A stretch of DNA of 26,143 nucleotides from an uncultured archaeon (GCA_964426185.1 CAYRPF010000009.1:34702-60844), one strand, 5' to 3'. Counted from the stretch's first letter, positions 5,453-26,143 are shown. The notes: generated by a model from the sequence alone, not told the origin. Made by a program: numbers and translations.

Positions 5453-6268
5453 TTACCAATACTTTGCCACTCGTTCGGGATTAAAAACTGTCATTCGACA
5501 ATTAGGTAAGAATTTTCCGATATGCGCAATCAATCCTGCAGCCGTTGTGCCCGATTTACATCGGACTGCCGCTTCCATCGGACCCAATCTATCGATTTGC
5601 ATTATATCGATGGTATGGCCACGTTTGGCTAATGTTTTTTTGATCATTTGACGGGAAACACCCGTTGTAAAGATTGTGTCCCAACCTTCTTCTACCATCT
5701 GTCTGATTTTAACCAAGAAATTTTCAGAAAATTGGCCTTCTACTTTGGGTTTCCCTTTTTTTTCATAAGTTAATTTTGTGACTTCGAGCTCCACTGGTAG
5801 ATGGTTCATTAAACCGTATAGATGAATAATCTCTTTAGTTGAGAGTTTGTCATTACCCACCAATTGCTGTCGTAATCGAAAAAGGGGAATTAATACTTCT
5901 TTACTCGGACCTTCAATACCGATATCTACAAAAACCCCAAATCCGACCGAACCTATCGAAGTTAATTGCCCGATTAAGGGAGTATTTTTTGGAATATTAT
6001 TCGCATCAATGACCCGGCCGGTGAGTTCTTGTAAAATGCGAGAAACAAATTGGCATTCATCTTTATTAGGACCAATTAAAGTGATTTTTATCCTATTATC
6101 TAATCGAAATTCTAAATCGTCAATTTTCACGTCTAAATCGTGAGGGATCCGTTCTTCTAAAACTCGCTGAAAAGTACGCAAGAAATTAGTCCTTTCCTGG
6201 GCGGTTTTTGCCTTATTAATAGCATAAAATTGATACGCCGTAACATATGCGAGCGATGTGTGGTGCAT
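5453..6268 (-). CDS. Conserved archaeal uncharacterised protein, DUF2110-like (central S1/OB-like region)
   Basis: 271 aa; GQLTSIGSVGFGVFVDIG and the C-terminal region resemble the archaeal DUF2110 family (recognised from memory, not searched). Confidence 0.6.
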   Translation of the reverse strand: MHHTSLAYVTAYQFYAINKAKTAQERTNFLRTFQRVLEERIPHDLDVKIDDLEFRLDNRIKITLIGPNKDECQFVSRILQELTGRVIDANNIPKNTPLIGQLTSIGSVGFGVFVDIGIEGPSKEVLIPLFRLRQQLVGNDKLSTKEIIHLYGLMNHLPVELEVTKLTYEKKGKPKVEGQFSENFLVKIRQMVEEGWDTIFTTGVSRQMIKKTLAKRGHTIDIMQIDRLGPMEAAVRCKSGTTAAGLIAHIGKFLPNCRMTVFNPERVAKYW

Positions 6269-6410
6269 TTGATTTAACTTCCTTTGAAATTAGTAATTAA
6301 AATTACATTTAACTCTATAACTTCTCCAAATTCCATCGAATTTAGGAAAAAATATATAGGTTAAAAGAAAAAATGTACGATATAACTTATTTTTTTTGTT
6401 TTTCTTGAAA

Positions 6411-6417
6411 AAGGAGG
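6411..6417 (+). promoter_or_regulatory. Shine-Dalgarno sequence of the profilin-like gene
   Basis: AAGGAGG 6 nt upstream of ATG 6424. Confidence 0.7.
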
Positions 6418-6423
6418 AAGATT

Positions 6424-6804
6424 ATGGATATTGAACAACTCATCCCAGAATTTAATGCTTTTCAACAAGAATTTCCCGATTTCGATCTTTTTATCATTTT
6501 GGCCTCTGATGGAGAGGTTTTATACAGCAGCAATCCGGAAAAAGTTAATCCCGAAGAAACTCGTTCCTTAATGCACGCGTGGCTTAAGCGTGAATCTGCT
6601 TGTATGTTTGGCCAAAAGAGATACCCAATATTAAGTTGGGAACCCTTACAATTTGCGGCGCGTAATGTGAAAGGGAAAGATGCATTAGTAGGGACAATTA
6701 CCCAATCCAGCTATTACTTACTTGCTCATTTGAAGGCGGGTGCAGAATTGGCGCCAGCTATCGGTGCCATCCAGTTAAATCGAAAATTTTGGAAGCTTAT
6801 TTAA
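6424..6804 (+). CDS. Profilin-like protein (Asgard type)
   Basis: 126 aa; N-helix, IILASDGEVLYSS hairpin, helix ending in AW, MFGQKRYPIL, FAARNVKGKDALVG, strand, C-helix. Pattern resembles Asgard profilins. Confidence 0.65.
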   Translation: MDIEQLIPEFNAFQQEFPDFDLFIILASDGEVLYSSNPEKVNPEETRSLMHAWLKRESACMFGQKRYPILSWEPLQFAARNVKGKDALVGTITQSSYYLLAHLKAGAELAPAIGAIQLNRKFWKLI

Positions 6805-6878
6805 TTCATTTTTTTGGTGTCTAGCAGTGTTGTGCTTCATTTAAACAACTTTTTATCTTACACAATCTTACAGTACCC

Positions 6879-7382
6879 ATGAAACCTGAAAAAATTCTTT
6901 TTCTCCATGGTTATGAAAGTTCAGGGAAAGGATTTAAAGCTGAATTTCTCCGACAAATATTTTCGAAGATTCAAACTCCCACGTTAACAGGCGATTTATC
7001 CGCCCGCATGGAACAAATTCTTCCACTTTTTTTAGAACATGAGAGGTGGGTTATCATTGGTTCAAGTTATGGGGGGCTGATGGCAACACTTTTAGCTCAA
7101 AAGTATCCATCTCGAATTTCAAGGCTTGTTCTCCTTGCTCCAGCCTTAATTCCACCTTTATTTACTCCCGATCCATCTCTTTCTCCTATCGATATTCCCA
7201 CAGATATATTTCATGGATTAAATGATGATGTAGTTCCGCTCGAAACGGTAAAACCAATCGTAAAAAAGATATTTTCCAATTTAGAATATCATATCGTGGA
7301 TGATGATCATCGTCTTCATTCTACAACACGCCAGATCCCGTGGGAAAATTTACTCGTAAATAATACAATCAATCAAGGGTAG
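6879..7382 (+). CDS. YqiA/YcfP-like alpha/beta hydrolase (esterase)
   Basis: LFLHGYESS oxyanion region, GSSYGG nucleophile elbow, HGLNDDVVP Asp, DDHRL His. Confidence 0.85.
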   Translation: MKPEKILFLHGYESSGKGFKAEFLRQIFSKIQTPTLTGDLSARMEQILPLFLEHERWVIIGSSYGGLMATLLAQKYPSRISRLVLLAPALIPPLFTPDPSLSPIDIPTDIFHGLNDDVVPLETVKPIVKKIFSNLEYHIVDDDHRLHSTTRQIPWENLLVNNTINQG

Positions 7383-7405
7383 TAATTTGGAAAAACGGGC
7401 GAAAT

Positions 7406-8242
7406 TCACAAATACCATTGTGGTTCCATTCGAATTCTTAACGCATCTTCAAATCTTTTTCTTGAATTTGAAGGTAGGTTGAGAGTGATTTGACGAGCTT
7501 GAGATTTGCATGTCCTAAAACAAGCAAAGCAACGGATACAAGATTTATCGTCTACCATGAGCGAATTAAAATCAATAGCATTCACTGGACAAGCTGCATA
7601 ACATTCCCTACATGAAATACATTTTTCTTCATCTCGCACAGGTGCCTGAACCATTGTTTGTACCCGATATTGAGGATGAGGGAGGCTGTAATTAATATTT
7701 GGATTTTTCATATTAATTTCAAAAGGTTTTAGAGTATTTTCGGAAGGATCAGATGGTATTTTTCTAATTTTCTGGCTTAATTCTTGGCAAAATTGTCTTA
7801 ACTTTTGAAAATCTTCATTATCTGGACGGTTTATGGCTAAAGGAAATTGTTGGTAGGAAAAAGAATGTCTCCCGGTGAAAGTAGCTGCAGCAATGACCTT
7901 AAAACCTTGTCTTTTTAATATCCAAACTAATTCTTCCAAAGCTTTTCCTAAATTTACATTTCCATTTACTACAAGTGCCACGCAAAGTTGGTTTTCCCCC
8001 TTAATTGAATTTAATTTCTGGAGAAATTGATCGGGAATTCTACCTGAATAAATAGGGGCCCCTACAAGAATTAAATCACCATTCACTTTTTGAATGCTAT
8101 TTTTTCGGGATTCGTGAAGAGTAAGATCTATGATGGAAGAAATCTCTGACCCGAGATAATAAGCAATACGAAGACAATATTTTTTAGTATTTTTCGTGGG
8201 TGAGAAAAAGAGTGGTTGAATTGATTTCAGCTGCATATACAT
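7406..8242 (-). CDS. EFR1-type flavodoxin plus 2x[4Fe-4S] ferredoxin fusion
   Basis: N-terminal FFSPTKNT flavodoxin loop, GAPIYSGRIP, RPD motif; C-terminal CISCRECYAACP and CIRCFACFRTC. Confidence 0.85.
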   Translation of the reverse strand: MYMQLKSIQPLFFSPTKNTKKYCLRIAYYLGSEISSIIDLTLHESRKNSIQKVNGDLILVGAPIYSGRIPDQFLQKLNSIKGENQLCVALVVNGNVNLGKALEELVWILKRQGFKVIAAATFTGRHSFSYQQFPLAINRPDNEDFQKLRQFCQELSQKIRKIPSDPSENTLKPFEINMKNPNINYSLPHPQYRVQTMVQAPVRDEEKCISCRECYAACPVNAIDFNSLMVDDKSCIRCFACFRTCKSQARQITLNLPSNSRKRFEDALRIRMEPQWYL

Positions 8243-8337: not shown

Positions 8338-9060
8338 ATGTTTTCAACACCAGGACTTGGATATGACCGTGCGATCACCATATTTTCTCCCGATGGCCGC
8401 CTTTTTCAGGTAGAATATGCCATTGAAGCGGTAAGAAGAGGAACTACGGCCGTGGCGGTTAAAAATAAAACTGGAGTTGTTTTTGCAGTGGAAAGACGCA
8501 ATTTACCACTTCAAGAACATCTCGGAAGCGAAAAGCTATTTAAAATCGACGATCACGTAGGTGTTGCTATTTCGGGACTTACTGCTGATGCACGTACTCT
8601 TATTGATCAGGCTCGAGTTCACGCTCAAGTTAATATTTTAAGTTATGATGAAGAAGTTTCAGTGGTCGAAACAACCCGAGATCTCTGTGATCAATGTCAA
8701 TTATACACTCAAAATGCTGGTGTACGCCCCTTTGGTGTTTCTTTATTGATTGGGGGGGTAGATGAAGATGGGACAGTGAATTTATATCTTACCGATCCAT
8801 CTGGTGCCTTTTGGGGCTATAAGGCTTGTGCAATTGGAAGTGGTTCTACTCAAGCGCGAGAATATCTCGGTAATGAATATTCAGAAAGCATGTCATTTGA
8901 GGAATTACAACTTCTAACCATCCGAACCTTAAAAGAGGTAATTGAAGGAGATTTAGATTCAAATCGATTTGAAATTGCCGTAATTGATGCCAAGGATCGA
9001 AAATGGAAGCTTCTTTCCATCAAAGAAAATCAAACCCTTTTAGAAAAAATTACAGATTAG
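8338..9060 (+). CDS. psmA: Proteasome alpha subunit
   Basis: GYDRAITIFSPDGRLFQVEYA signature, RPFGVSLL, TDPSG. Confidence 0.98.
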   Translation: MFSTPGLGYDRAITIFSPDGRLFQVEYAIEAVRRGTTAVAVKNKTGVVFAVERRNLPLQEHLGSEKLFKIDDHVGVAISGLTADARTLIDQARVHAQVNILSYDEEVSVVETTRDLCDQCQLYTQNAGVRPFGVSLLIGGVDEDGTVNLYLTDPSGAFWGYKACAIGSGSTQAREYLGNEYSESMSFEELQLLTIRTLKEVIEGDLDSNRFEIAVIDAKDRKWKLLSIKENQTLLEKITD

Positions 9061-9076
9061 AAAAAATTACAGATTA
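9040..9076 (+). repeat. 17-bp tandem duplication spanning the psmA stop codon
   Basis: TTAGAAAAAATTACAGA at 9040-9056 and 9057-9073, followed by TTA. Confidence 0.85.
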
Positions 9077-9269
9077 AATCTTTTTTTCGAATTTTTCTTC
9101 TATTATTGAAATTCTTAAATAACATTCTTGCTTTATTTAAATAGAAACGGTAAGAACAGATATTGCCCCGATCGAGCAGCTTATAAGATAAAGTCTGTTA
9201 TGATTTTACAAAAATCGGTCAAATTTGGGCGATATTTCAATCTATAGGGAATAATTGGAGAAAAGTAGG

Positions 9270-10061
9270 ATGTCACACGCACGGGGTGGACCCAAAGGGA
9301 ATTTCGATTTGGGGAAATATATTATTGTCAAATTAGAAAAAGCCAATCGAAACTTTGAAATGATTGCGGATCCGAATGAGGCGTGGAAAGCAAAACAAAT
9401 CATCAAGAAATTACTGCAAAAAGAACCTGAACATCAGCTCCAAGTTGAGGAAATATTAAATAATTCCGATATTGATTTGGAAAGCATTTTTCCAACATAT
9501 GATTTCTTCTTAAATGTTAAAAAAGGAGATCGCGTTACTGAAGCAGATTTAGAAAATGCTTTTGCCACTACTGATCCTCGCACTATAGCAGCCTATTTTC
9601 TGATAGATGGTGATTTTGCTTGGACCAAAGCCCAGCGTGATCAATGGTTAGAGAAAAAACGGAAGCAAATTATCAACATTTTAGCTCGAAATTCGATAAA
9701 TCCCCAAACAAAGCGTCCTCATCCCCCCAATCGTATTGAAAAAGCCTTAGAAGAAGCACGAGTATCTATTGATATCAATAAACCAGCAGAAGAACAAATT
9801 GATGCAATTGTAAAACGAATACAAACCGTTATCCCCATTCGGATTGAAACTATTCAGATGGCTGTGAAAATACCAGCAGAATATGCTGCGAAAGCCTATA
9901 ATACAGTGGAGCAATATGCTCAAGTCAAACAATCAGAATGGCAAACGGACGGATCTTGGATAGGTATGATTTCCTTACCTGCTGGATTACAGATGGAATT
10001 GTTAGATAAATTAAATAAATTGACTCACGGACGGATGCAGAGTAAATTAATCCAGAAATAA
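9270..10061 (+). CDS. sbds: Ribosome maturation factor SBDS/Sdo1
   Basis: NFEMIADP, INPQTKRPHPPNRIEKALEEA, IPI, LPAG...KLNKLTHG; position between psmA and rrp4. ATG at 9270 preferred over TTG at 9255. Confidence 0.95.
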   Translation: MSHARGGPKGNFDLGKYIIVKLEKANRNFEMIADPNEAWKAKQIIKKLLQKEPEHQLQVEEILNNSDIDLESIFPTYDFFLNVKKGDRVTEADLENAFATTDPRTIAAYFLIDGDFAWTKAQRDQWLEKKRKQIINILARNSINPQTKRPHPPNRIEKALEEARVSIDINKPAEEQIDAIVKRIQTVIPIRIETIQMAVKIPAEYAAKAYNTVEQYAQVKQSEWQTDGSWIGMISLPAGLQMELLDKLNKLTHGRMQSKLIQK

Positions 10062-10324
10062 TTATCACTGGTTTCATTTCATTCTCGTGATAGTTCTTGT
10101 GAGTAGCTTTGACAAAAAAATAGGTGAAAGCTAACACACCAAGCAGGCTGTGATGACCTCATACCACTTTTCCTATTTCTTCCCGTTCAATAAAAATATA
10201 AAAAAAATCTAAATGCGGTCTATTACCATCATAGGAGCTTGACAACTGATTAATCGCTGATTGTCAACTTCAAATTTTGAAGATAAATAGACGTATTAAG
10301 AAAAAACAAACACAGTGAACCTAT

Positions 10325-11071
10325 ATGTCCGCGGAGAATAAACAAATACGCGAAATCGTTACTCCAGGTCAAGTAATTGCCTCTGATCCCGAGTTAATGG
10401 CTGGAAGAGGGGCGATAAGAGAAGCAAATGGGGATATCGTCTCTGTTTTCGTTGGATTGAAAGAAATTCGGGGAAAATATGTGAATGTAGTCCCTTTAAA
10501 TGGATTGTACAACCCTCAAATTGGAGATAAAGTCATTGGCCGAGTGATTGCAAAAACTCCTGTGAAATTTTTACTGGATATCAATTCCAAATTTTTAGGC
10601 ATTCTTAAACCATCTGATGCCTTTAAACGTTCTCATCGTACTCGAGGATATCCCAAAACCATGGGCACTTATCGACTCCCTCGGGAAAATGATATGGATA
10701 AGTTGAAAATGGGTGATATGCTAATTTGTAAAGTTCTTTCAGGATCACGCACAGAAGAACCCACTTTAACTAGTTTAGGTCAAGAATTAGGATTGATCAC
10801 AGAAGGTTTAGTTATTGCAATTGCTTCGACTAAAATCCCCCGAGTAATCGGAAAAAAGGGGAGTATGATTGCACTTTTGAAAAATTTGTTACATTGTAAA
10901 ATTTTTGTTGCTCAGAATGGGCGAATCTGGATACACGGTCGAAATCCAGAAAGCGAACGGTTATTAATTGAAGTAATTTATAAAATAGAACGTGAAGCTC
11001 ACACGACCGGCTTAACCGATCGAGTAAAAGCTTATATTATTAAAGAAAAGAAAAATAGAGGTATCAAATAA
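10325..11071 (+). CDS. rrp4: Exosome RNA-binding cap subunit Rrp4 (S1 + KH)
   Basis: IVTPGQ, YNPQIGDKVIG (S1), KIPRVIGKKGSMI (KH GxxG), VAQNGRIWI, EREAHTTGLTDRV. Confidence 0.96.
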   Translation: MSAENKQIREIVTPGQVIASDPELMAGRGAIREANGDIVSVFVGLKEIRGKYVNVVPLNGLYNPQIGDKVIGRVIAKTPVKFLLDINSKFLGILKPSDAFKRSHRTRGYPKTMGTYRLPRENDMDKLKMGDMLICKVLSGSRTEEPTLTSLGQELGLITEGLVIAIASTKIPRVIGKKGSMIALLKNLLHCKIFVAQNGRIWIHGRNPESERLLIEVIYKIEREAHTTGLTDRVKAYIIKEKKNRGIK

Positions 11072-11073
11072 CA

Positions 11074-12153
11074 ATGCCAATTTTAGTACCTGAACCTCAT
11101 GATGAGGTATGCTTTCGAGAAGACGGAAAAAGGTTAGACGGGCGCGCTGTTGATGAATTGCGCCCTTTTTCTTGCGAAGTTGGGGTTATAAAAAATGCAC
11201 AAGGCTCTGCACTTGTTCGACATGGAAAAAATCTGATTTATGCTGCTATTTACGGACCACGGGAAGTTCATCCCCGCCATTTAGCACGACCAGATCGTGG
11301 TATATTACGAGTCTATTATAGGATGGCTACTTTTTCGGTTCATGAGAGAAAAAGTCCTGCTCCGAATCGACGTGAAAACGAAATTTCTAAAGTAATTCGG
11401 GAGGCATTAGAACCAGTATTATTTTTAGAAGCCTATCCTGATTCTCAAATTGAAGTATATATAGAAGTAATTGCCGCCGATGGAGGTACTAGATGTGCTA
11501 GTACTACTGCTGCATCCTTGGCTTTAGCAGATGCTGGAATTCCCATGAAAAGTATGGTGGTAGGTGTGGCTGCAGGAAAAGCCCAAGGTAAGGTCCTTCT
11601 GGACTTAGGTGATAAAGAAGATAAGGTGGGACAAGCTGATATTCCATGTGTAGTGGTGATGAAAGATAAATCGATTTCACTTCTACAATTTGATGGAGAA
11701 ATGACTTTGGAAGAAATGAAACTCGGCTTTGAATACGTTCTTAAAGGAGCGGAAATCATTTATCAGAAACAATTAGAAGCATTACGTGAAAAATATAATA
11801 AAATTTCACGCCAAGCTGAAATTGAAGATGCAGAATTAAGCAAGGAAACTCCTAAAGAAGAAAAAACAGCATCAGAATCTACAGATACTGCGGTTTCTCC
11901 CGAATCTTCTGATATATTTAAGAGTGATGTGGAAGCAGAATCTGCTGAAAATACCAGATCTGCCGAAATTAATGAAACTCCTGAAGCATCTGAGACCCCC
12001 TCAACTGAAGGATCCGAAACAAAAACATCCCAGGAAGATGTTTCTTCCGTAGGTAAAGAAGCAAAAGAAGAAAATACACTTTCTGAAGAATCGGCTCCAT
12101 CTGAAGTACCCCCCCAAGCCGGTGAGGACAATCCCACAGGAGATGATAAATAA
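11074..12153 (+). CDS. rrp41: Exosome catalytic subunit Rrp41 with long acidic C-terminal extension
   Basis: RLDGRAVDELRP, YGPREVHPRHL, YRMATFSVHERK, ADGGTRCA, LLDLGDKED...ADIP. Confidence 0.96.
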   Translation: MPILVPEPHDEVCFREDGKRLDGRAVDELRPFSCEVGVIKNAQGSALVRHGKNLIYAAIYGPREVHPRHLARPDRGILRVYYRMATFSVHERKSPAPNRRENEISKVIREALEPVLFLEAYPDSQIEVYIEVIAADGGTRCASTTAASLALADAGIPMKSMVVGVAAGKAQGKVLLDLGDKEDKVGQADIPCVVVMKDKSISLLQFDGEMTLEEMKLGFEYVLKGAEIIYQKQLEALREKYNKISRQAEIEDAELSKETPKEEKTASESTDTAVSPESSDIFKSDVEAESAENTRSAEINETPEASETPSTEGSETKTSQEDVSSVGKEAKEENTLSEESAPSEVPPQAGEDNPTGDDK

Positions 12154-12983
12154 TGATGGATATTAACGATGTTGTTAGCAATTTAGAACGAAATTACATC
12201 TTAAAATTATTAAAACAAGGCAAGCGAATTGACGGTCGCGGACTTTTTGAATATAGAGAGGTTAAAATAAAAACGGGATTTATTCCCAAAGCGGAAGGTT
12301 CAGCTGATGTCTTTTTAGGTGATACTCGCGTTATGTGCGGGGTAAAATATGATATTGGAGCACCATTCTCAGATAATCCCGACAAAGGGGTATGCACTGT
12401 AATGACAGAATATGTTCCAATTGCTTCCCCTATGTTTGAACCCGGACGACCTGATGAAGTTGCTATTCAATTAGCACGAGTAGTTGATCGTGGTATTCGC
12501 CATACTAATTGCATTGATTATAAGAAACTCTGCATTAAGGAAGGAGAATATGTCTACATTCTGTTTGTAGATTGTTATATGATGGATTATTTCGGTAATT
12601 TAACTGATGCTTCTGCCATTGCAGCGATTGCAGCATTATTAAACACAAATTTACCCGGTGCTAAATTGAATGAAAAGGGTGAACCTGAATGGGATGGAAC
12701 ATATGCACCATTGACGATCTACGAAATTCCGTTAAGTATTAGTTTTGGAAAAGTAGGCGATGTGATTTTCGTCGATCCTAATTTATCGGAAGAAATGGTG
12801 TTAGATGGTTCTATTGCATTTGCTGTAGACGAGAAGAAGCAAGTAACTTCTATTCAGAAATATGGAAGTGCTACTTGGACTGTAAATGAAATAATGGAAA
12901 CATCGAAGAAAGCCATTGAAATTGCTGATGAATTACGAGCAAAATTGAAATTACGCCAACATGTTCAACAATCGAATTCATAA
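12153..12983 (+). CDS. rrp42: Exosome subunit Rrp42
   Basis: RIDGRGLFEYR, KAEGSA, FEPGRPDE, LARVVDRGIR, VDPNLSEE; TAATG overlap with rrp41. Confidence 0.96.
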   Translation: MMDINDVVSNLERNYILKLLKQGKRIDGRGLFEYREVKIKTGFIPKAEGSADVFLGDTRVMCGVKYDIGAPFSDNPDKGVCTVMTEYVPIASPMFEPGRPDEVAIQLARVVDRGIRHTNCIDYKKLCIKEGEYVYILFVDCYMMDYFGNLTDASAIAAIAALLNTNLPGAKLNEKGEPEWDGTYAPLTIYEIPLSISFGKVGDVIFVDPNLSEEMVLDGSIAFAVDEKKQVTSIQKYGSATWTVNEIMETSKKAIEIADELRAKLKLRQHVQQSNS

Positions 12984-13099
12984 TTTTTTTATTTCAAGTA
13001 ATTTTTCGAGGAATTTTTGAGTAAATCGGAAAATTCACAAAATTTTTTTAATTTGCTTCTTTCTCCTACTTATTCTTATTGCAAGTTGAAGTGAATTTT

Positions 13100-13387
13100 A
13101 TGGCTAAAACAAAAAAAGTGGGTATCTCAGGAAAATTTGGCCCAAGATATGGTTCTACCTTACGTAAACGATGGAATAAAGTAACTGAAAAGCAAAAAGG
13201 ACCTACCAAATGTCCTAAATGTGAATCTAAAATAAGAAATATGAGAAAGTTTGTTGGTGTGTGGGAGTGTCCTAAATGCGGAGCGCGTTGGACTGGTGGA
13301 GCATGGGAGAGCAGTACTGCCCGTGGAAAAGAATCTCATCGAATTGCCACACGATTAGCTCGTGAAACTTTAGAAGCAGAGAAGTAA
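13100..13387 (+). CDS. rpl37ae: 50S ribosomal protein L37ae (eL43)
   Basis: GKFGPRYGSTLRK, CPKC...GVWECPKCG, GGAW. ATG at 13100. Confidence 0.96.
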   Translation: MAKTKKVGISGKFGPRYGSTLRKRWNKVTEKQKGPTKCPKCESKIRNMRKFVGVWECPKCGARWTGGAWESSTARGKESHRIATRLARETLEAEK

Positions 13388-13439
13388 ACCTAAGACTTCA
13401 CTTGTTTTTTCATCTTTTTTCTATGAAGCGTGAATCGGT

Positions 13440-13694
13440 ATGCAGATTACAACCGAGGTTAAATTTATTTTTAATACAATCGAGCATCGGGATATTTTTT
13501 TTAAAAGCTTTTTACCTGAATTCAAGGGATTCAATGCTAAACGTTCTTCTTGGCAGATTTACCCTATTAATCCTGATTCAGCACATATCAATTTCCAGAT
13601 TCAAGCAGAGGATGCCACTGCATTTCGTGCTACCATAAATTCTTTGATTCAATTTGCAAGTGTGGTTGAAAAAACACTAAATCTTGTTGAATAA
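13440..13694 (+). CDS. pcc1: KEOPS complex subunit Pcc1
   Basis: 84 aa; SFLPE, KRS, IQAEDATAFRATINS; usual position in the exosome superoperon. Confidence 0.85.
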   Translation: MQITTEVKFIFNTIEHRDIFFKSFLPEFKGFNAKRSSWQIYPINPDSAHINFQIQAEDATAFRATINSLIQFASVVEKTLNLVE

Positions 13695-16135: not shown

Positions 16136-16945
16136 CTAAGAATTTAATTCTTCAAAATCTCCGATTTCTAAATATTCCTCCATACTTTTTGATTCAAGCA
16201 GTAAATAACCCGAATCGTTTATTCCCTTCAATTTAAAACCTTTTCCCTCTTTACCTTCAATTTTTGTGCCCAAATTATAAAGATTTTGATTGTATTCTTT
16301 TTTTAGTTGATTTTTGGTCTTTGAAGAAAAATTTGTAATTACATTTTTCCATATCTCCGCCAGAATGGTCGGTATATTCTTTTTTGCAAAATTTTGAATA
16401 TTTACATGATAATCAATCAAATCAGAAACTGAAACGGTGGTATTTTTTAAATTTTCAGGAAAATTAGTCGAAGAATTATTAAAATTAATACCCATTCCAA
16501 TTAATAAAATATGTTTTTCGGGAGTAGAAATAACTTCTAATAATATTCCACCGAGTTTACGAAGCTTATTGATTCTATTTTCTGAGATAATAACTAAATC
16601 GTTTGGCCATTTAATTTTTACAGGAATGTGAAATTCTTCAGAAATCATTCTCTTAAGAATGCTTACTACAGCGTAATGTAGAAAGATAAATTGCTGTGTT
16701 GAAAGAATATTGGGAAGTGGAATGGCTAAAGTCCCCCAAAAACCTCCTTCGGGAGAAAACCAATCATCATTTTTTCTTCCCCTACCATGATGCTGAATTC
16801 TCGCGGATAAAAACACTGCTTTTTCGTTCGAATCTTGAATAAATGGAATGATTGCATCTTGGGTTGAATTTACTTTATCTAAGAAGATATATCGAAGTGG
16901 AGGAGGCGGTAAACGTGAAAGATGTGAAGGAAGTGAAGGATTCAC
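16136..16945 (-). CDS. birA: Biotin-protein ligase (group I, no HTH)
   Basis: VNSTQD, QHHGRGR...WFSPEGG, IKWPNDL, KLGGIL, IGMGIN. Confidence 0.92.
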   Translation of the reverse strand: MNPSLPSHLSRLPPPPLRYIFLDKVNSTQDAIIPFIQDSNEKAVFLSARIQHHGRGRKNDDWFSPEGGFWGTLAIPLPNILSTQQFIFLHYAVVSILKRMISEEFHIPVKIKWPNDLVIISENRINKLRKLGGILLEVISTPEKHILLIGMGINFNNSSTNFPENLKNTTVSVSDLIDYHVNIQNFAKKNIPTILAEIWKNVITNFSSKTKNQLKKEYNQNLYNLGTKIEGKEGKGFKLKGINDSGYLLLESKSMEEYLEIGDFEELNS

Positions 16946-17114
16946 ATTTAATTTAATATTATTGATGGCAAAAAGATTCTCATTTCATTCCTACTCGGAA
17001 AAGTGTGCTTAGTTTTTTATTAATTTTTACATTCAGATTGCTGATTCCTAAATATTTTCGTTTTAACCAATATCTCTTCAACTACTTTTACAATGTGGAT
17101 TTCTCGAAGTTTGT

Positions 17115-17126
17115 TTTTATATAAAA
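17115..17126 (+). promoter_or_regulatory. TATA box for carboxyltransferase/megasynthase operon (possibly leaderless)
   Basis: TTTTATATAAAA centred about 27 nt upstream of ATG 17148, in the divergent birA/carboxyltransferase intergenic region. Confidence 0.5.
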
Positions 17127-17147
17127 TAACATTTATTTAAATCAATA

Positions 17148-18725
17148 ATGATTTTAAAAAAAACTAAAAAGGAACTAGATCCATCCTTGGTTCAGCTTTC
17201 TTCCTTAGATTCACTTAGAAGACAGTCTTTAAACGGTGGAGGCTCCCAAAAAATCGAAAACCAGCATAAAAAGGGAAAATTGACCGCACGTGAAAGGATT
17301 GAACTGTTAGTCGATCCTGGTACATTTATAGAAATCGATGAATTTGTGATGCATCGGGCCATCAAATTCGACATGCAGCAGCAAAAATATCTTGGGGATG
17401 GTGTGGTAACTGGATTTGGACTGATTCACGGGCGAAAAGTGTTCATTTATAGCCAAGACTTCACCGTAATGGGGGGTAGTTTGGGAAATGCACATGCTAG
17501 TAAAATTTCAAAGATTATGGACTTAGCCATAAAAAACGGATGCCCTATAATAGGACTTCTCGATTCTGGGGGCGCGCGCATTCAAGAGGGTGTGGATTCA
17601 TTGGCCGGTTTTGGCGAAATTTTTCATCGTAATGTGCAAGCCTCCGGTGTGGTGCCACAAATTTCGGTCATTCTGGGCTCATGCGCTGGAGGGGCCGTTT
17701 ATAGCCCGGCTTTAACGGATTTCATCATTATGGGTGGGAATCATTCATATATGTTCGTAACTGGTCCGCAAGTTGTTGAATCTGTAACTAATGAAAAAGT
17801 TTCCTTTGAGGAATTGGGTGGCAAAGAAATACACGGAAAAACTTCAGGTGTTGCTCATTTGACTACTGCCACTGAAGAACAAGCATTAGACTTAGTAAAA
17901 ATCTTACTTTCTTATCTGCCCTCAAATAATCTGATGGATCCTCCCATAAATCCAGATTTTAATGAACCAGAAAATAGTGCCAATTTGAATAATCTCATTC
18001 CCAAAAAAGAGAATGAACCCTATGATATGATTATAGTAATTAAAGGAATTGTAGATGAAAATTCATTTTTCGAAATATTTCCACAATACGCGCCTAATAT
18101 TATTACTGGTTTCGCTCGATTGGAAGGAAATTCCATTGGGATTATTGCAAATCAACCCTTATCCTTAGGAGGGGCAATTGACTTTCATGCTTCTGATAAA
18201 AGTGGACGATTCATTCGATTTTGTGATGCATTTAATATCCCGTTAATTACTCTGGTTGATGTCCCAGGTTTTATGCCTGGAGTCAATCAAGAACATGCCG
18301 GCATCATTCGTCATGGTGCAAAAATGATTTATGCCTATGCAGAAGCTAGCGTTCCTAAAATTACGATTATTACTAGAAAAGCATACGGAGGTGCTTATAT
18401 TGTAATGGCTTCTAAACATCTAGGTGCTGATATGAATTTTGCTTGGAATACGGCTCAAATTGCCGTAATGGGAGCTGAAGGTGCCTGTAAAATTCTCTAC
18501 CGAAAAAAGATCAAAGCTTCACCTAATCCTAAAATTGCTTTGCAAAATTATATTACGGCTTACAAGCAAGAATTTTCTAATCCATATCAAGTTGCAGAAT
18601 TAGGTTATGTGGATAAGGTAATTTATCCCTCAGAGACACGTTCAATAGTTATTAATTCACTTAAATTTCTCACAAATAAACGTGAAAATGTTCCAAAACG
18701 CAAACATGGTGTGTTTCCAGTCTAA
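17148..18725 (+). CDS. Acyl-CoA carboxylase carboxyltransferase subunit (PccB/AccD/MmdA family)
   Basis: GKLTARERI, GDGVVTG, QDFTVMGGSLG, DSGGARIQEG, GSCAGGAVYSPALTDF, DVPGFMPG, RKAYGGAY, AVMGAEGA, KRKHG. Confidence 0.96.
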   Translation: MILKKTKKELDPSLVQLSSLDSLRRQSLNGGGSQKIENQHKKGKLTARERIELLVDPGTFIEIDEFVMHRAIKFDMQQQKYLGDGVVTGFGLIHGRKVFIYSQDFTVMGGSLGNAHASKISKIMDLAIKNGCPIIGLLDSGGARIQEGVDSLAGFGEIFHRNVQASGVVPQISVILGSCAGGAVYSPALTDFIIMGGNHSYMFVTGPQVVESVTNEKVSFEELGGKEIHGKTSGVAHLTTATEEQALDLVKILLSYLPSNNLMDPPINPDFNEPENSANLNNLIPKKENEPYDMIIVIKGIVDENSFFEIFPQYAPNIITGFARLEGNSIGIIANQPLSLGGAIDFHASDKSGRFIRFCDAFNIPLITLVDVPGFMPGVNQEHAGIIRHGAKMIYAYAEASVPKITIITRKAYGGAYIVMASKHLGADMNFAWNTAQIAVMGAEGACKILYRKKIKASPNPKIALQNYITAYKQEFSNPYQVAELGYVDKVIYPSETRSIVINSLKFLTNKRENVPKRKHGVFPV

Positions 18726-18767
18726 TTTTTTCTTTTGCTATTAATAATAATTTGATTAATCTAAATA

Positions 18768-18772
18768 GGTGA
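18768..18772 (+). promoter_or_regulatory. Archaeal-type ribosome-binding site for the megasynthase
   Basis: GGTGA 4 nt before ATG 18777. Confidence 0.6.
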
Positions 18773-18776
18773 TATT

Positions 18777-21700
18777 ATGAAAAAAATACATGAAATTCAA
18801 AAACTTTTGGGTAATTCTGTTCCAATTTGGGGATATAATCCTCAAGGGTTGAAAAATATGGATATTTTGTTGAGTATCTCGAGAAATAGTGGAATTGGGT
18901 TATTTAATACCGCAACCTTTTCAATCCAAGATATTAATGAAATCTTAATTCAAATCTCTCAAAAATTAGATGAAACAGCATATTGGGGTATTTTAATACA
19001 TGAAGATAGTATAATTCCACGTCTTATATTTCCATCATCTAGAATAATTGTTATTTGCTCGTTTTCTCCTTCTTCCGCCAATCTTTCATTATTACAGCAA
19101 AAAACAGTGATGATTGGGGCCGAGGTACTTACAACAATTGAAGCTAAGGAAAAATCAGGTTGGGCTGATTTTTTCCTAGTTCGGGGAAATGAAGCAGGAG
19201 GTGTCGTGAGTAACATTAATTCTTTCATTCAAATTCAAGAATTTCACAAAATGGGATATAGTTTTATTATTGAAGGCGGTTTTGGTATATTTAATGTTGG
19301 AGCTGCCCTTGTTGGAGGTGCATTCGGAGTAGTCTTTGAGTCTCAATTGTATTTATTGAAGGAATCACCTCTTTCTTCTGCATACAAATCATACTTAGTT
19401 TCACTTCAAGAGAACGATTTCTATTTGGCAGTCGAAAATGAAATGTTTAATTATCGTTTAATAGGAAAATTAGCAAACAAATCGATTCGAAAAATAAAAG
19501 CTCAAGAGAAAGCATTCTATCAATATCTCATCAGTCAAGATGAAAATATGTCTCGTAATTTTTTCGAACAGCATTTTAATGCTTATCTTGATAAGATTTT
19601 CTCAGAAAAATCGCGTATTCCTGACTGGACTTCAGACAATCCCAAACATGCTTTTATGCCTTGTGATCATGGTATAATTTTTGCTCGATATGTAGCAGAA
19701 TGTTATGAAGACATTGCTGGATTTATTCAAGGCTTGAAAAACCTGATCAAACACCAATACAATCAGATTAAAACTAATTGGCCTTTTCAAGAATGTAGCC
19801 CAATCGCGCAATTATTAAATATCAAATATCCAATAATCCAAGGCCCAATGGCGAATATAACTGAATCTTTGGAATATGCTCAAGTTATTGCAGAAAACGG
19901 CGCATTGCCAACATTTGCACTTGGTGGTTTAATGGATCATGAAGCAGATCTGTTATTGCAGAAAGTTTCGCAATCTCCCTTACAAAACAAATCTTATATG
20001 GCAGGAATAATCGGGTTAGAAGTAGTTAAAAAGCGTCGAAATGCTCAATTAGAATCAATCAAAAAATATAAAGTTCCTTTTACCTTAATTGCAGCTGGCT
20101 CGGTTGAGCTGGCCAAACAAGTCATTCGGCAAGGGGAACGGGTGTTTTTACATACTCCAGCTCTGTCTATGTTTCGAGAAGCAATAAAAAATGGAATAGA
20201 ATTTATGATTTTAGAGGGCAGTGAATGTGGTGGTCATATTGGGACTCTTTCATCTTGGGTTTTATGGGAAAACGTATTAGAATATTGTGTTCAAGAAAAA
20301 AGTAATCTACCAGAGCGAATGAATGTTATTTTTGCAGGTGGCATTATCGATTCCAATAGTAGCACTATGGTTGCAATGTTACTTGGGGAACATCTTGATC
20401 AAATAAATCCTGCTATTCAGATGGGAACTGCATATTTATTCACTCAAGAAATAGTTACCTCAAAAGCTCTTTCTTACGTTTATCAAAATCTATTGTTAGA
20501 TCATCAAACAACAAGAGTTATTGGAGCAACCGTTAACACCAGAGCCAGGGTTATACCTTCTTTATTTACTTATCTTACAATTAAAAAAGAATTTGAACGT
20601 ATTACTCAAAATTTACCCATTTCGAAGCGTAAAGATTTATATGAGAAAGATAATCTGGGTGCACTTCGAATTGCCGCTCAAGGTGAAATTTGGAATGCTA
20701 AACATGTTCCTGGGACTGGAACCACCCAATTTCTCCCGATTTCTCCAGAAAAGCAGAAAATATCAGGGGCATTTATGACTGGAGAGATTATTTCCCTTCG
20801 TAATTCGGTCGTTTCAGTTAAGAATCTCCATTATGATATCGTAAAGGGGGGATTTCATCACCTTTCGGACGAATTCTTAAAAAGATTTACTTCATCTACT
20901 AAAACGCCCCATATTATCCAAAATAGAGAAATAATTGCCAATCAAGAAATTTCTATTGATTCTCGTGTAGCAATTGTGGGATTGGGGGGTGTATTTCCTG
21001 ATTCTAATAATATCACTGAATTTTGGCAGAACATTTTAATGAGAAAGTATTCAATATCTGAAGTTCCCTCAGATCGTTGGGATGCAGAAATTTATTATAG
21101 TTCCAATAAAAATGAGCCAGATAAAACGTATACAAAAATCGGGGGTTTCATCAAAAATTTTCAATTTAAACCAATAAAATTTAGAATTCCTCCACAAATG
21201 GCTGCAAGAATGGATCCTGTACAAAAATGGGCTCTAACAGCAGCAAAAGAAGCATTGTTAGATGCAAAATTCCCCGTTGATGGTAAAAAACCCATTAATT
21301 TAGCCGTAATTTTAGGAAATTCTTTAGGAGGAGAAATTCAACGGACTAATGACAAAAGAGTATTGATTCAAGAAATTAAACATATTTTTCATCAAGCCAA
21401 ACAACTTAATATGGCAACAACCTCAAGTCTCGTAGAATTGCAAACATATCTTGAAAATGAGCTGATCAAAGATATACCTCCAATAAATGAAGATACAATG
21501 CCAGGTGAATTGTCAAATATTATTGCCGGAAGAATTTGTAATATATTTAATTTAAATGGTAAAAATCTAACCACTGATGCTGCTTGTGCTTCAAGCCTGG
21601 CCGCATTGGATACTGCAGTTAAAGGTTTATTATTTGGAGATTATGATGCAGTTTTAGCAGGTGGTGCCGATAGATCCATGGATCCTGCAGTATTTATCAA

Positions 21701-24700
21701 ATTTTCTAAAATTGGGGCGTTATCTGCTAAAAAATCATGCCCTTTTGATGCTGAAGCTGATGGCTTTGTCATGGGAGAAGGCGCCGGTTTTGTGGTTTTA
21801 AAACGATTATCTGATGCAATTCGCGATAATGATAAAATTTATGCTGTGATTAGAGGAATAGGGTCATCATCTGATGGCCGAGGCAAGGGAATAACTGCTC
21901 CGAATCCCCAAGGTCAACAAAATGCCATTTTACGTGCTTATAATGCTGCAAAAATATCTATCGATGATATCCAATATATTGAATGTCATGGAACATCAAC
22001 AGTTATTGGAGATGCTGCTGAATTAAAGGTACTTCAAGATATTCTTAAAAATAAAGGTGGAAATCAAAAAATTGCAATCGGTTCAGTTAAAAGTCAAATA
22101 GGTCATTTGAAAAGTGCTGCCGCGATTGCCGCATTAATCAAAACGAGTTTGGCGTTGTATCATAAAACTATCCCTCCGTCTGTAAATTTTAATACACCCA
22201 ATCCAAAAATTGATTGGGAAAAAGCACCCTTTTATGTAAATACTCAAACCCAGCCTTGGGAACTTTCTGAAAGTTCAATTAGAAGGGCGGGTGTTTCAGC
22301 ATTCGGATTCGGAGGTACGAATTTTCATGTAGTTTTGGAAGAATATTCCCCGCAAAACTTAGATTTTCCAAAAATATCTCTGCCGGTTTACCATCTAAAC
22401 GAAAATTTTCCTTCCTTATCTCAACCTATAAATAATTTTTCAGAAATCAACGAGGATCTCTCTTTAGTTTTGATGTTCAGTGGACAAGGAAGCCAATTTG
22501 TTGGTATGGGGAAGGAATTATATCAAAAAATACCCGTAATTCGTGAAGTGTTAGATCAAGCAAATAATATTTCTCAAAATTTTGGTAATTTTGATCTTTT
22601 AAAAATTATGTTTGGGGATCCTAAGCGCTCGTTGGAAGAAAATCAGAAGATTTTAACACAGACACAGTTTACTCAACCTGCAATCTTTAGCTTAGAAATT
22701 GCTTTATATCGTTATCTCACCCAAAAAGGTCTCTCTCCAGGAATTGTTGCAGGGCATAGTTTAGGTGAATATTCTGCTCTAGTTGCTTCTGGTGTAATTG
22801 ATTTTGAACATGCAATGAAAGCTGTGATTATTCGGGGAAAAGCAATGAGCGAAGCGAGTTCAGAAATTTCATGTGGAATGGCAGCTTTATTATGTTCACC
22901 TGAACAAGCAGGCAAAATTATATCCCAAATCAATAAGGGCTTTGTGTCGATTTCTAATTATAATTCTCCCCGTCAGACTGTTATCTCTGGTGATTTGGAA
23001 GGAATTAATGAAACATTGAAATTATGTCAAACAGCTAAAATTACTGCTATACAACTAAAGGTTTCTCAAGCATTTCATTCAAAATTCGTGGCAGGTGCTG
23101 GTTCGAAATTGGCGGAATTTTTAAATTCTATTCCATTTAAGGCTCCCCGTATTCCAATTTTTAGTAATGTTTTAGGAAGTCAATATCCTCAAGATCCTCA
23201 ACGAATTAAAGATATTTTGGTGGATCAAATCACTTCGCCGGTTCGGTGGACTCAAGAAATTGAGCAAATTTACAATAAAGGTGGTCGAAGGTTTGTAGAA
23301 GTTGGACCTAAGAAAGCTTTATTCTATTTTGCAAACGAAATTCTTAGGAAAGAAAAGAACACAAAGTATTGGTTTACATTGTCTCCTAAAAATCCTGAAG
23401 TTGAACATCTTCAACAAACTATTGAGTCTGTTCTGAAAGAGGAAAATAAAATCCTTAAAAAGAAAAATTACAGAATTGATGCAAGTTTCACTTCACAAGC
23501 ATTCGATAGCAGAAGAGGTAATCCTTCAAAATCACCCCTTAGCATCTTAGAATCTGATAAGGAACTAAAAAAAATAATTAATCAACCTAATTTTGCGGAT
23601 TTTATCCGACATCAGAAAGATATTTTAATTCCTCTGTTGAAGTCCAACTTTAAGCAATATAATAAGATTCAAGTGTTGGAACAACAGCAAAGGCTAAAGC
23701 ATGAATCTCTAAACAAAATTTCATCAATTCCTTTGGGAATTACTGGAGTAGGTATTGGCCTACCGGGGAAAAATCGAAAAGTTTTCGATGATTCTAATAT
23801 TCAAGCAATTCTTCGGGGAGATAATTTTATTGAGCCTATTGATGAAAGATTAAAATATGACATTCTCGAGAAAAATATCGTTCGATTGAATAAAACTTCG
23901 ACAGGGCGCGCCTCTTTTATTGAGATTAATGACATTTCTCAAGTTATCCATCTTGCTGGTCAGATCGGGGAATTTTCTCCAGAAAAGGATTTCTTATTGA
24001 ATGAAAAATTACTCCATGCTTTAGATATTACTTCAAAATTAGCCATTGGGGCTGGATTTGAAGCGTTGAGAGATGCTGGAATCCCCTTGGTAAAATCTGA
24101 ACTGATAACTTCTACTGGAAAGAAAATTTCGGGTGATTGGGCACTTCCCGAAGAATTACAAAAGAATACAGGAGTAGTTTTTGCTTCTGCATTTCCTGGT
24201 TATGATAATTTTGCAAAGGATTTAACAACTCAACTAACTCAAAAATTTGAAAATCAAACCAAGAATCTTATTATTTCCAAGGTTAATCAACTTTTAGAAA
24301 AAATCGAACATCCCGTAATTAAAAAAGACTTACGCAAGTGGTTTGAAAAAGAAAAACAATTACTAACAGGAAAACAGCAAGATCTTCAAAAATTCAACAA
24401 ATCATTCCTATTTAGAATTCTTTCTATGGGGCATTCTCAATTTGCCCAGATAATAAAAGCTAAAGGACCAAACACTCAAATTAATGCTGCATGTGCAACT
24501 ACAACACAAGCATTTGCAATCGCCGAAGATTGGATTAAAACAGGAAGATGCAATCGTGTTATAATAATTTCAGGAGATTGTCCGACTACTAATGATCTAT
24601 TCCCTTGGTTGGGTGCAGGTTTTGTTGCAAGTGGCGCTGGTACAATCAAGCAAACATTAGAAGAAGCGGCTTTACCGTTTGGTAAAGGGCGAAATGGTTT

Positions 24701-26143
24701 GATCGCAGGAGCTGGTGCAACAGGTTTTGTAGTTGAACACCCTTCTGAGGCAAAACGAAGAGGTATAAAACCGATTGTCGATTTATTGGGGACTCATATA
24801 AGTAATAGCGCATATCATGGCTCACGTTTAGATAAGCATGATATTTGTTCTGCGATGGAACTTTTCATTTCTAAAATGGAAAATACATATGGAATTTCGA
24901 AATCTGAAATCGCACAACAAGGAATGTTCGTAAGTCATGAAACTTATACTCCTGCGCGGGGTGGTAGTTCTGAATCTGAATTGGAGGCACTTGCCTTCAC
25001 ATTTGGCTCTCAATCACATAACATTTTAATTGTTAACACTAAAGGTTTCACAGGTCACACGATGGGTGTAGGGATTGAAGAGGCAGTTGCGATAAAATCT
25101 ATTGAATTCGGGCAAATTCCTCCAATTGCAAATATTGAAAAATTAGATCCAAAATTTGAAGGTTTTAATTTTTCGAGAGGGGTTCAAGATAGAAAGAAAT
25201 ATGCTATAAGATTTGCTGCTGGATTTGGTTCACAACTTGCCATTTTATTATTTAGGACAAATACACCTGTTAATCGAAAGGATAATATAAAATACAAGTC
25301 TTGGTTAAATTCTATCGCAAGGTCAACTGAGTTGTACTTAGATGGAAGAATTTTAAAGATTAAATCTACAAAAGCTTCAAGAGAATTTCAAAAAAAGGCT
25401 ATAAAATTTTCTTCTTTGAATGTTCAAGAAAAAAATCTGCCCGTCCTTCCCTTTTTGTTAGAAATCATATCCAAAACAACAGGTTATGATGTCTCTGATC
25501 TTGATTCCAAGTATGATCTTGAAGAAGATTTGGGTATCGATACCATTAAGCAAGCGGAGATCTTTGGGCAAATCCGCGAAAAATGGCAAATACCAGAAAA
25601 TATGGATGTGAACCTTGCGGATTTCAAGACAATTGAAGACATTGTTTCGTTCATTTCAAAATTTAAGAATATAGATAGTGAAACTTCCGAAACATCGCAA
25701 GTTGTGAATCAAATTTCTTCTCCAAAAACTGAGATAGAATCGATAGAAACAAGTGTTCAAAAAATTATTGCAGAAATCACCGGATATGATGTGGAAGATC
25801 TTGAATTAGGATTTGATTTAGAAGAAGATTTGGGCATCGATACCATTAAGCAAGCGGAGATCTTTGGACAGATTCGTGAAAAGTGGCAGATACCAGAAAA
25901 TGCTGAAGTGAATCTTGCAGATTTCAGAACAATTAAAGATATTGTTTCGTTCATTTCAAAATTGAAGAATTTAGATGACGAAAGCTCCAAGACGACCCAA
26001 GTTATAAATCAAAATTCTTCTTCAAAAAATGGAATTAAATCGATAGAAACAAGTATTCAAAAAATTATTTCAGAAATCACCGGATATAATGTGGAAGATC
26101 TTGAATTAGGATTTGATTTAGAAGAAGATTTGGGCATCGATAC
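18777..26143 (+). CDS. Type I FAS/PKS-like megasynthase, 3'-truncated by window edge (>=2455 aa): ER0-ER-KS1-MAT-KS2-ACP-ACP-ACP...
   Basis: Manual translation from ATG 18777 shows no stop to the end of the window. FabK/NMO-like barrel 1 (RGNEAGGVV, ~18800-19750). Barrel 2 (YPIIQGPM, EGSECGGH, FAGGI, QMGTAYLFT, ~19800-20850). KS1 (VAIVG, TDAACASS, ECHGTST, KSQIGHLK, GFGGTNFH, ~20964-22346). MAT (FSGQGSQ, GHSLGE, QAFHS, PVRW, FVEVGP, ~22464-23350). KS2 (NAACATT, VSHETYTP, KGFTGHTMG, GFGSQ, ~23727-25256). ACPs (DLEEDLGIDTIKQAE). Confidence 0.95.
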   Translation, partial: MKKIHEIQKLLGNSVPIWGYNPQGLKNMDILLSISRNSGIGLFNTATFSIQDINEILIQISQKLDETAYWGILIHEDSIIPRLIFPSSRIIVICSFSPSSANLSLLQQKTVMIGAEVLTTIEAKEKSGWADFFLVRGNEAGGVVSNINSFIQIQEFHKMGYSFIIEGGFGIFNVGAALVGGAFGVVFESQLYLLKESPLSSAYKSYLVSLQENDFYLAVENEMFNYRLIGKLANKSIRKIKAQEKAFYQYLISQDENMSRNFFEQHFNAYLDKIFSEKSRIPDWTSDNPKHAFMPCDHGIIFARYVAECYEDIAGFIQGLKNLIKHQYNQIKTNWPFQECSPIAQLLNIKYPIIQGPMANITESLEYAQVIAENGALPTFALGGLMDHEADLLLQKVSQSPLQNKSYMAGIIGLEVVKKRRNAQLESIKKYKVPFTLIAAGSVELAKQVIRQGERVFLHTPALSMFREAIKNGIEFMILEGSECGGHIGTLSSWVLWENVLEYCVQEKSNLPERMNVIFAGGIIDSNSSTMVAMLLGEHLDQINPAIQMGTAYLFTQEIVTSKALSYVYQNLLLDHQTTRVIGATVNTRARVIPSLFTYLTIKKEFERITQNLPISKRKDLYEKDNLGALRIAAQGEIWNAKHVPGTGTTQFLPISPEKQKISGAFMTGEIISLRNSVVSVKNLHYDIVKGGFHHLSDEFLKRFTSSTKTPHIIQNREIIANQEISIDSRVAIVGLGGVFPDSNNITEFWQNILMRKYSISEVPSDRWDAEIYYSSNKNEPDKTYTKIGGFIKNFQFKPIKFRIPPQMAARMDPVQKWALTAAKEALLDAKFPVDGKKPINLAVILGNSLGGEIQRTNDKRVLIQEIKHIFHQAKQLNMATTSSLVELQTYLENELIKDIPPINEDTMPGELSNIIAGRICNIFNLNGKNLTTDAACASSLAALDTAVKGLLFGDYDAVLAGGADRSMDPAVFIKFSKIGALSAKKSCPFDAEADGFVMGEGAGFVVLKRLSDAIRDNDKIYAVIRGIGSSSDGRGKGITAPNPQGQQNAILRAYNAAKISIDDIQYIECHGTSTVIGDAAELKVLQDILKNKGGNQKIAIGSVKSQIGHLKSAAAIAALIKTSLALYHKTIPPSVNFNTPNPKIDWEKAPFYVNTQTQPWELSESSIRRAGVSAFGFGGTNFHVVLEEYSPQNLDFPKISLPVYHLNENFPSLSQPINNFSEINEDLSLVLMFSGQGSQFVGMGKELYQKIPVIREVLDQANNISQNFGNFDLLKIMFGDPKRSLEENQKILTQTQFTQPAIFSLEIALYRYLTQKGLSPGIVAGHSLGEYSALVASGVIDFEHAMKAVIIRGKAMSEASSEISCGMAALLCSPEQAGKIISQINKGFVSISNYNSPRQTVISGDLEGINETLKLCQTAKITAIQLKVSQAFHSKFVAGAGSKLAEFLNSIPFKAPRIPIFSNVLGSQYPQDPQRIKDILVDQITSPVRWTQEIEQIYNKGGRRFVEVGPKKALFYFANEILRKEKNTKYWFTLSPKNPEVEHLQQTIESVLKEENKILKKKNYRIDASFTSQAFDSRRGNPSKSPLSILESDKELKKIINQPNFADFIRHQKDILIPLLKSNFKQYNKIQVLEQQQRLKHESLNKISSIPLGITGVGIGLPGKNRKVFDDSNIQAILRGDNFIEPIDERLKYDILEKNIVRLNKTSTGRASFIEINDISQVIHLAGQIGEFSPEKDFLLNEKLLHALDITSKLAIGAGFEALRDAGIPLVKSELITSTGKKISGDWALPEELQKNTGVVFASAFPGYDNFAKDLTTQLTQKFENQTKNLIISKVNQLLEKIEHPVIKKDLRKWFEKEKQLLTGKQQDLQKFNKSFLFRILSMGHSQFAQIIKAKGPNTQINAACATTTQAFAIAEDWIKTGRCNRVIIISGDCPTTNDLFPWLGAGFVASGAGTIKQTLEEAALPFGKGRNGLIAGAGATGFVVEHPSEAKRRGIKPIVDLLGTHISNSAYHGSRLDKHDICSAMELFISKMENTYGISKSEIAQQGMFVSHETYTPARGGSSESELEALAFTFGSQSHNILIVNTKGFTGHTMGVGIEEAVAIKSIEFGQIPPIANIEKLDPKFEGFNFSRGVQDRKKYAIRFAAGFGSQLAILLFRTNTPVNRKDNIKYKSWLNSIARSTELYLDGRILKIKSTKASREFQKKAIKFSSLNVQEKNLPVLPFLLEIISKTTGYDVSDLDSKYDLEEDLGIDTIKQAEIFGQIREKWQIPENMDVNLADFKTIEDIVSFISKFKNIDSETSETSQVVNQISSPKTEIESIETSVQKIIAEITGYDVEDLELGFDLEEDLGIDTIKQAEIFGQIREKWQIPENAEVNLADFRTIKDIVSFISKLKNLDDESSKTTQVINQNSSSKNGIKSIETSIQKIISEITGYNVEDLELGFDLEEDLGID
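25441..26143 (+). repeat. Tandem 300-bp ACP-encoding repeats (2 complete + 1 partial)
   Basis: GAAGAAGATTTGGGYATCGATAC recurs at 25521, 25821 and 26121, an exact 300-nt period; units 2 and 3 are nearly identical where they overlap. Confidence 0.95.

Follow-up and report, generated by a model that had tools for sequence, protein, structure and literature searches.

Organization of the Synthase Gene

The window analyzed here, a 26,143-nucleotide stretch of DNA from an uncultured archaeon (GCA_964426185.1 CAYRPF010000009.1:34702-60844), forms the end of contig C9 of genome G000 (3.26 Mb, 92% complete) and closes within an open reading frame (ORF) for a type I iterative megasynthase resembling fatty acid synthases (FAS) and polyketide synthases (PKS), whose acyl carrier protein (ACP) domains carry Thr instead of Ser at the phosphopantetheine site. 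The ORF (18777–26143, plus strand; 2455 codons at 18777–26141) runs open into the contig end and goes on at the start of contig C101 (G000:C101:3-3401) as ACP(Thr)-KR-DH-PPTase, comprising ketoreductase (KR), dehydratase (DH) and phosphopantetheinyl transferase (PPTase) domains. With both contigs joined, the full domain order is ER-ER-KS-AT-KS2-ACP×3–4-KR-DH-PPTase, where ER, KS and AT are enoyl reductase, ketosynthase and acyltransferase domains. The GC content of the ORF (34.9%) agrees with that of the genome (34.2%).

The first ER-like repeat, of the FabK/PfaD type (18777–19781), has no conserved catalytic His and is probably non-catalytic, maybe a pseudo-domain. The second ER repeat (19806–20555; PF03060 NMO, TIGR03151 FabK-like) contains His487, invariant in 70/70 sequences. 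KS1 (20961–22358) carries the triad Cys937-His1071-His1110, and the AT (22473–23357) a GHSLG motif with Ser1328 and an xAFHS motif, which we take, by the known motif rules, to indicate the malonyl type. A second, family-specific ketosynthase, KS2 (23724–25256), looks catalytic rather than being a chain length factor (CLF), since its Cys1906-His2054-His2094 triad is kept in 280/280 homologues; the candidate reactions for it are priming, late elongation or head-to-head condensation. Apart from gaps, the Cys-His-His residues of KS1 and KS2, Ser/His/Arg of AT, Ser/Tyr/Lys of KR and His of DH are invariant in the homologues. All synthase domains in the window are encoded on the plus strand. An initial sequence-only reading had considered the KS, AT and ER active sites intact, which holds for KS1, AT and the second ER but not for the first.

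Threonine at the Acceptor Site

The same reading had reported Thr at the phosphopantetheine site of every carrier in the window, and re-reading of the codons bore this out. ACP1 (25440–25676) and ACP2 (25731–25976) both read DLEEDLGIDTIKQAEIF, with Thr2256 and Thr2356 encoded by ACC at 25542–25544 and 25842–25844, respectively. ACP3 (26034–26143) is broken off by the contig end after GID, the window closing with GAT-AC, so that the first two letters of the acceptor codon (AC, 26142–26143) are the last ones present. The end of C9 and the start of C101 share 19 nt, and C101 opens with DLGIDTIKQ, the Thr codon of ACP3 being ACT. A contig from an independent run, spanning 24989–25642, is identical at the Thr codon of ACP1, and the sole variant among independent contigs at that of ACP2 is the synonymous ACT. 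At 99.3% identity, the record P0001 runs across the junction of the two contigs and contains four ACPs, all with Thr. One 300-bp ACP repeat is therefore probably missing from the window and the repeats are under-counted; ACP2 resembles a hybrid of two repeats, which may reflect assembly collapse or a strain difference.

The window domains pass the PF00550 profile (40.2 bits versus a curated cut-off of 20.8), and their Thr aligns with the phosphopantetheine-bearing Ser of PigH and AcpM. An AlphaFold model (pLDDT 92) shows the helical-bundle fold, with a TM-score of about 0.8 to solved ACPs and Thr, Thr2356 in ACP2, as the first residue of helix II, i.e., at the acceptor position, where Ser would be expected. 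An alternative attachment residue within the domain was ruled out, no other Ser or Cys column being conserved across the family (maximum 30% for Ser and 1.3% for Cys).

Conservation of the Threonine Across the Family

The motif GIDT[IV]KQAE, proposed in the sequence-only reading as a search handle, proved in homologue searches to mark a large family of synthases with a KS2 domain. Of the 544 domains returned by a first search, 525 have Thr and 9 have Ser. This count was biased by the ACPs included in the query, and the search was therefore repeated with KS2 alone (150 clusters at 50% identity; ACPs counted as intact at ≥60 bits). Thr was found in 343/354 intact ACPs and Ser in 11/354, with no other residue; by protein, 123 were Thr-only, 3 mixed and 4 Ser-only. 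Where the site holds some other residue, the motif as a whole has been lost and the domain scores at most 58 bits, the median being 103. In the 77 KS2-selected loci of named bacterial genomes, belonging to Chloroflexota, Acidobacteriota, Myxococcales, Calditrichia, Actinomycetota and others, Thr occupies the site in 268/268 ACPs. Among the 400 Asgard genomes searched, 62 carry the synthase (65 matches, 3 of them weak), and it is near-universal in some families (28/31, 9/12 and 10/12 genomes).

All four Thr codons are in use, both in Asgard archaea (ACT16/ACA15/ACC15/ACG8) and in bacteria (ACG122/ACC115/ACT23/ACA8), which argues that the residue and not the codon is under constraint. The readable Ser codons (n = 4) are all AGT, a single step from ACT. 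In a KS2 tree, midpoint-rooted without an outgroup and used here only for the scatter of the Ser lineages, the Ser occurrences are spread over at least five different positions, all embedded among Thr proteins, and some arrays combine both residues in a single polypeptide (S-T-S). This pattern fits repeated reversion, and Ser and Thr are thus interchangeable at the acceptor site.

The Ser copies of the S-T-S arrays (L046/G016 and L047/G015; P0055 and P0070) are encoded by AGT and have lost the Gln otherwise found three residues after the acceptor (+3). Over all domains, this Gln is absent from 10/17 with Ser and from 6/833 with Thr.

These data leave virtually no room for sequencing error, decay or a recoding of ACN codons as Ser. 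The near-identical repeat at the window end, where one unit was probably lost in assembly, could be cited in favor of an artifact. This explanation is refuted by the agreement of independent contigs, the occurrence of the trait in two domains of life and the use of all four codons, and the same ORF encodes the catalytic Ser of its AT by a normal AGT codon. The sequence-only reading was thus right to regard the substitution as neither error nor decay.

The Fused PPTase and the Search for Other Carriers

The C-terminal domain, encoded at about 2700–3380 of C101, is an Sfp-type PPTase (PF01648), in which SITHS corresponds to the hShxH motif and two lobes carry the SH, GxDxE and WxxKE(A)xxK motifs. 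Residues that we take to be equivalent, in Sfp numbering, to H90, D107, E109, K150, E151 and K155 are retained throughout the aligned fused domains except for two E-to-D exchanges. In G000, this domain is the sole PF01648 match and the synthase gene the sole PF00550 match. No second PPTase was found in G000 or in the one-contig genome G135 of the same genus, nor was a stand-alone carrier detected in either by PF00550, by four custom profiles or by alignment A3; the positive control genome G142 gave 1e-28 with the profiles of stand-alone Asgard carriers. Canonical Ser-ACPs acting downstream or in trans, which the sequence-only reading had named as counting against it, were likewise sought in G000 and none was found. 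Since its catalytic residues are conserved and no other carrier or PPTase was detected, the priming enzyme is kept intact and fused to the sole carriers found.

A PPTase match is present in 60/62 synthase-bearing Asgard genomes, and about 51/80 bacterial loci have a PPTase within 10 kb. PPTases occur in 128/400 Asgard genomes overall and are not exclusive to the Thr-type synthase, because other Asgard genomes pair stand-alone Ser-ACPs with PPTases of their own. Such Ser-ACPs, with a W[TDN]S motif, were located in Lokiarchaeia without a synthase match (L054:9657-9854, L055:10001-10198, L056:4708-4893 and L057:5960-6148), where they and an Sfp-type PPTase adjoin a gene for a protein of about 500 aa and other enzymes. 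Another ACP-like protein of about 82 aa, conserved in Asgard family f13 (L060:4313-4513, L061:4666-4866, L063:860-1060, L064:5355-5555, L065:5342-5542 and L068:4460-4660), has no conserved acceptor Ser or Thr; its C-terminus is well kept and its gene neighborhood fixed. A PPTase-hydrolase-biotin carrier-like segment is tandemly duplicated 3′ of the synthase in genome G015 (L073:1-5515). At L076:39-6542, a Ser-only synthase (P0227) adjoins a divergent PPTase lacking the Arg motif of the family, a single case on a long branch hinting that the PPTase was replaced after reversion to Ser.

Gene Neighborhood and Host

The synthase gene is preceded by a gene for an acyl-CoA carboxyltransferase (17148–18725, plus strand) and, divergently oriented, one for a biotin protein ligase (16136–16945, minus strand). 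On C101, the fused PPTase is followed by an alpha/beta-hydrolase gene and by genes for a biotin carrier (5477–5677) and a biotin carboxylase (5993–7486). Taken together, positions 16136–26143 of the window and G000:C101:3-7486 encode a type I FAS-like synthase in full, together with the acetyl-CoA carboxylase subunits, a biotin ligase and a hydrolase. In a congener with a 4.36-Mb contig, the synthase gene is whole (3795 aa, five Thr ACPs), and the gene order is biotin ligase, carboxyltransferase, synthase, hydrolase, biotin carrier and biotin carboxylase, the same set as in G000.

The closest homologues carry the names Lokiarchaeota or Promethearchaeota, and the host is an Asgard archaeon of Lokiarchaeia. 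Genes for a proteasome alpha-like protein, Rrp4, Rrp41, Rrp42, Rpl37ae and Pcc1 are located directly upstream (8338–13694), in synteny with locus L157; this adjoining run of archaeal proteasome and exosome genes, in itself ordinary, places the synthase on an archaeal contig.

Proposed Role of the Threonine Carriers

From the position, fold and conservation of the Thr, its linkage to a PPTase and the lack of a detectable alternative carrier, we infer that the Thr domains are probably working acyl carriers, phosphopantetheinylated on Thr by the fused Sfp-type PPTase. The PPTase would use CoA as the donor and attach 4′-phosphopantetheine to the hydroxyl of the Thr that opens helix II, forming a phosphodiester with a secondary alcohol. 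The AT would then load the holo-carriers with malonyl units supplied by the flanking acetyl-CoA carboxylase, and the chains would pass among KS1, KS2, KR, DH and ER, yielding a reduced fatty-acyl or lipid product that the adjacent alpha/beta-hydrolase may release. The whole enzyme would thus operate as an iterative, reducing FAS/PKS. A precedent for phosphoester attachment to Thr by similar chemistry is provided by the ApbE flavin transferases.

Several observations weigh against this proposal. In E. coli ACP, a Ser-to-Thr exchange is used for inactivation, and the S36T variant could not be acylated (PMC13343975); ordinary priming therefore rejects Thr. A residue of the PPTase that could accommodate the additional methyl group was sought, and the candidates did not distinguish systems with Thr from those with Ser: a Ser-only protein also keeps the family Arg that lies five residues past the E109 equivalent, and Ser-carrier controls share the Thr found three residues before W147. 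The PPTase tree, with only six controls, is poorly supported and resolves no dedicated clade, so that of the co-occurrence with a distinct PPTase clade envisaged in the sequence-only reading only the linkage itself, by fusion, was recovered. The Thr/Ser-only spectrum is not confined to the catalytic site, the structural TGY Thr at –22 behaving alike; the ≥60-bit filter relies on a model trained on Thr domains, and the relatives are not independent of one another. Finally, the genome searches are insensitive to short ACPs, PF00550 having caught the G000 carriers once and missed them once, and G000 is only 92% complete.

The same E. coli result favors the view that the Thr domains serve, without being primed, as scaffolds or docking units, in which Thr would act as a helix N-cap in a T-x-x-Q capping box while the chains are carried on CoA or by a Ser-carrier in trans. 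Thr does open helix II in the model, the Gln at +3 is 98% conserved, stand-alone Ser-ACPs exist in some Asgard genomes, and a CoA-based, ACP-independent archaeal fatty acid route has been described (10.1101/2024.07.05.601840). However, as no stand-alone carrier was found in G000 or G135, this arrangement would leave the invariant fused PPTase and the AT Ser without a substrate. Asn and Asp are absent from the acceptor site in 841 intact domains, though tolerated by the Thr at +35 (15/841). The D-L-G-x-D recognition loop is 99% conserved, and the copy number of one to six matches that of tandem carriers. On balance, a scaffold role seems improbable.

Even less probable is another adduct on the Thr, for instance an O-acyl ester formed directly or a CoA-derived group other than phosphopantetheine, despite the conserved hydroxyl and the rejection of Thr in E. 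coli ACP. The transferase linked to the carriers is of the ordinary PF01648/Sfp type and its catalytic motifs are complete, Ser variants arise repeatedly within the same enzymes, and decarboxylative KS chemistry requires a thioester on a long arm. Of the options raised in the sequence-only reading, non-canonical Thr-phosphopantetheinylation is accordingly favored and a structural role disfavored. A broader version of the favored reading, in which family-wide O-phosphopantetheinyl-threonine, installed by a co-adapted PPTase partly orthogonal to AcpS/Sfp, drives ACP-dependent type I fatty acid synthesis in Asgard archaea, is advanced more tentatively, its chances falling somewhat short of even.

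To our knowledge, the acceptor Ser has been treated as invariant in all carrier proteins. A full-text literature search, weak in that subscription papers are poorly covered, returned no report of Thr-phosphopantetheinylation, the GIDT motif or an Asgard occurrence of the synthase. The Thr carriers are real and family-wide and apparently unreported in print, the cluster type being known but uncharacterized. A natural Thr-linked phosphopantetheine, if confirmed, would be an undescribed protein modification; annotation rules that call Thr-type domains dead would need correction, and an orthogonal carrier/PPTase pair might become available for labeling and pathway engineering. Thr priming also decides whether the FAS-like enzyme of 62/400 Asgard genomes can work, whereas a 2024 preprint describes archaea as lacking type I FAS.

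The cleanest system for a T-to-A exchange is offered by the cultured actinomycete Nonomuraea gerenzanensis (NZ_LT559118.1, L158:8908-22830), which encodes a KS-AT-KS2-ACP-KR-DH synthase with a lone Thr carrier, DLGVDTVKQAEIF, followed by genes for a multidomain acetyl-CoA carboxylase in a single chain and for a PPTase. The record, 11.85 Mb long and filed as a plasmid, is probably the chromosome.

Comparison With Known Systems

The acceptor domain with a solved structure closest in sequence is the tandem ACP of PigH from prodigiosin biosynthesis (PDB 5Y08; E 2.5e-21), which has the same fold but, unlike the window domains, Ser as the acceptor (DLG[VI]DS). Among NCBIfam models, the synthase best matches TIGR02813, the PfaA component of the PfaA/PfaE polyunsaturated fatty acid synthase; against the cut-off of 1010.1 bits, the window fragment scores below (772.6) and the complete congener protein P0002 above (1052.6), helped by its repeats. 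Tandem ACPs with TGY...DLG[IV]D, a PfaD/FabK-type ER and an Sfp-type PPTase are shared with the PfaA system, while Thr for Ser, KQAE for KRVE, the extra KS2 and the fused PPTase set the Asgard enzyme apart. Genes of the PfaB/PfaC type, encoding KS-CLF and the FabA-type DH pair, were not found in the complete locus L157, nor was any other KS or AT gene in G000. Fusion of the priming enzyme recalls the fungal type I FAS with its C-terminal PPT domain, and the fused-PPTase profile matches FAS alpha subunits; the architecture is otherwise different. The fungal PPT is of the AcpS type and acts on Ser.

In its architecture, the synthase corresponds to the type R secondary lipid synthases (Shulse and Allen, 2011; PMC3098273), in whose clusters KS, MAT, a second KS-like domain, three to six ACPs and KR are followed by a downstream PPTase, sometimes with an acetyl-CoA carboxylase gene in between. 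The KS-MAT-(second KS/CLF)-ACP(3–6)-KR order recurs in the Asgard synthase, and the downstream PPTase with hShxH is present as a fused domain. The differences are the ER-ER pair fused in front, DH and PPTase behind, and the archaeal host; the type R paper mentions neither threonine nor archaea. Its named members, Roseiflexus, Koribacter, Solibacter and Elusimicrobium, are matched at the genus or lineage level by KS2 relatives (L094, L145 and P0106) in Roseiflexus, Acidobacteriota and Elusimicrobia, i.e., in the same lineages, and the Roseiflexus sp. locus (L094) encodes three Thr ACPs with an adjacent PPTase. The second domain was labeled a CLF in that paper; given the Cys-His-His triad kept in all 280 homologues, it is this label, and not membership in type R, that looks doubtful.
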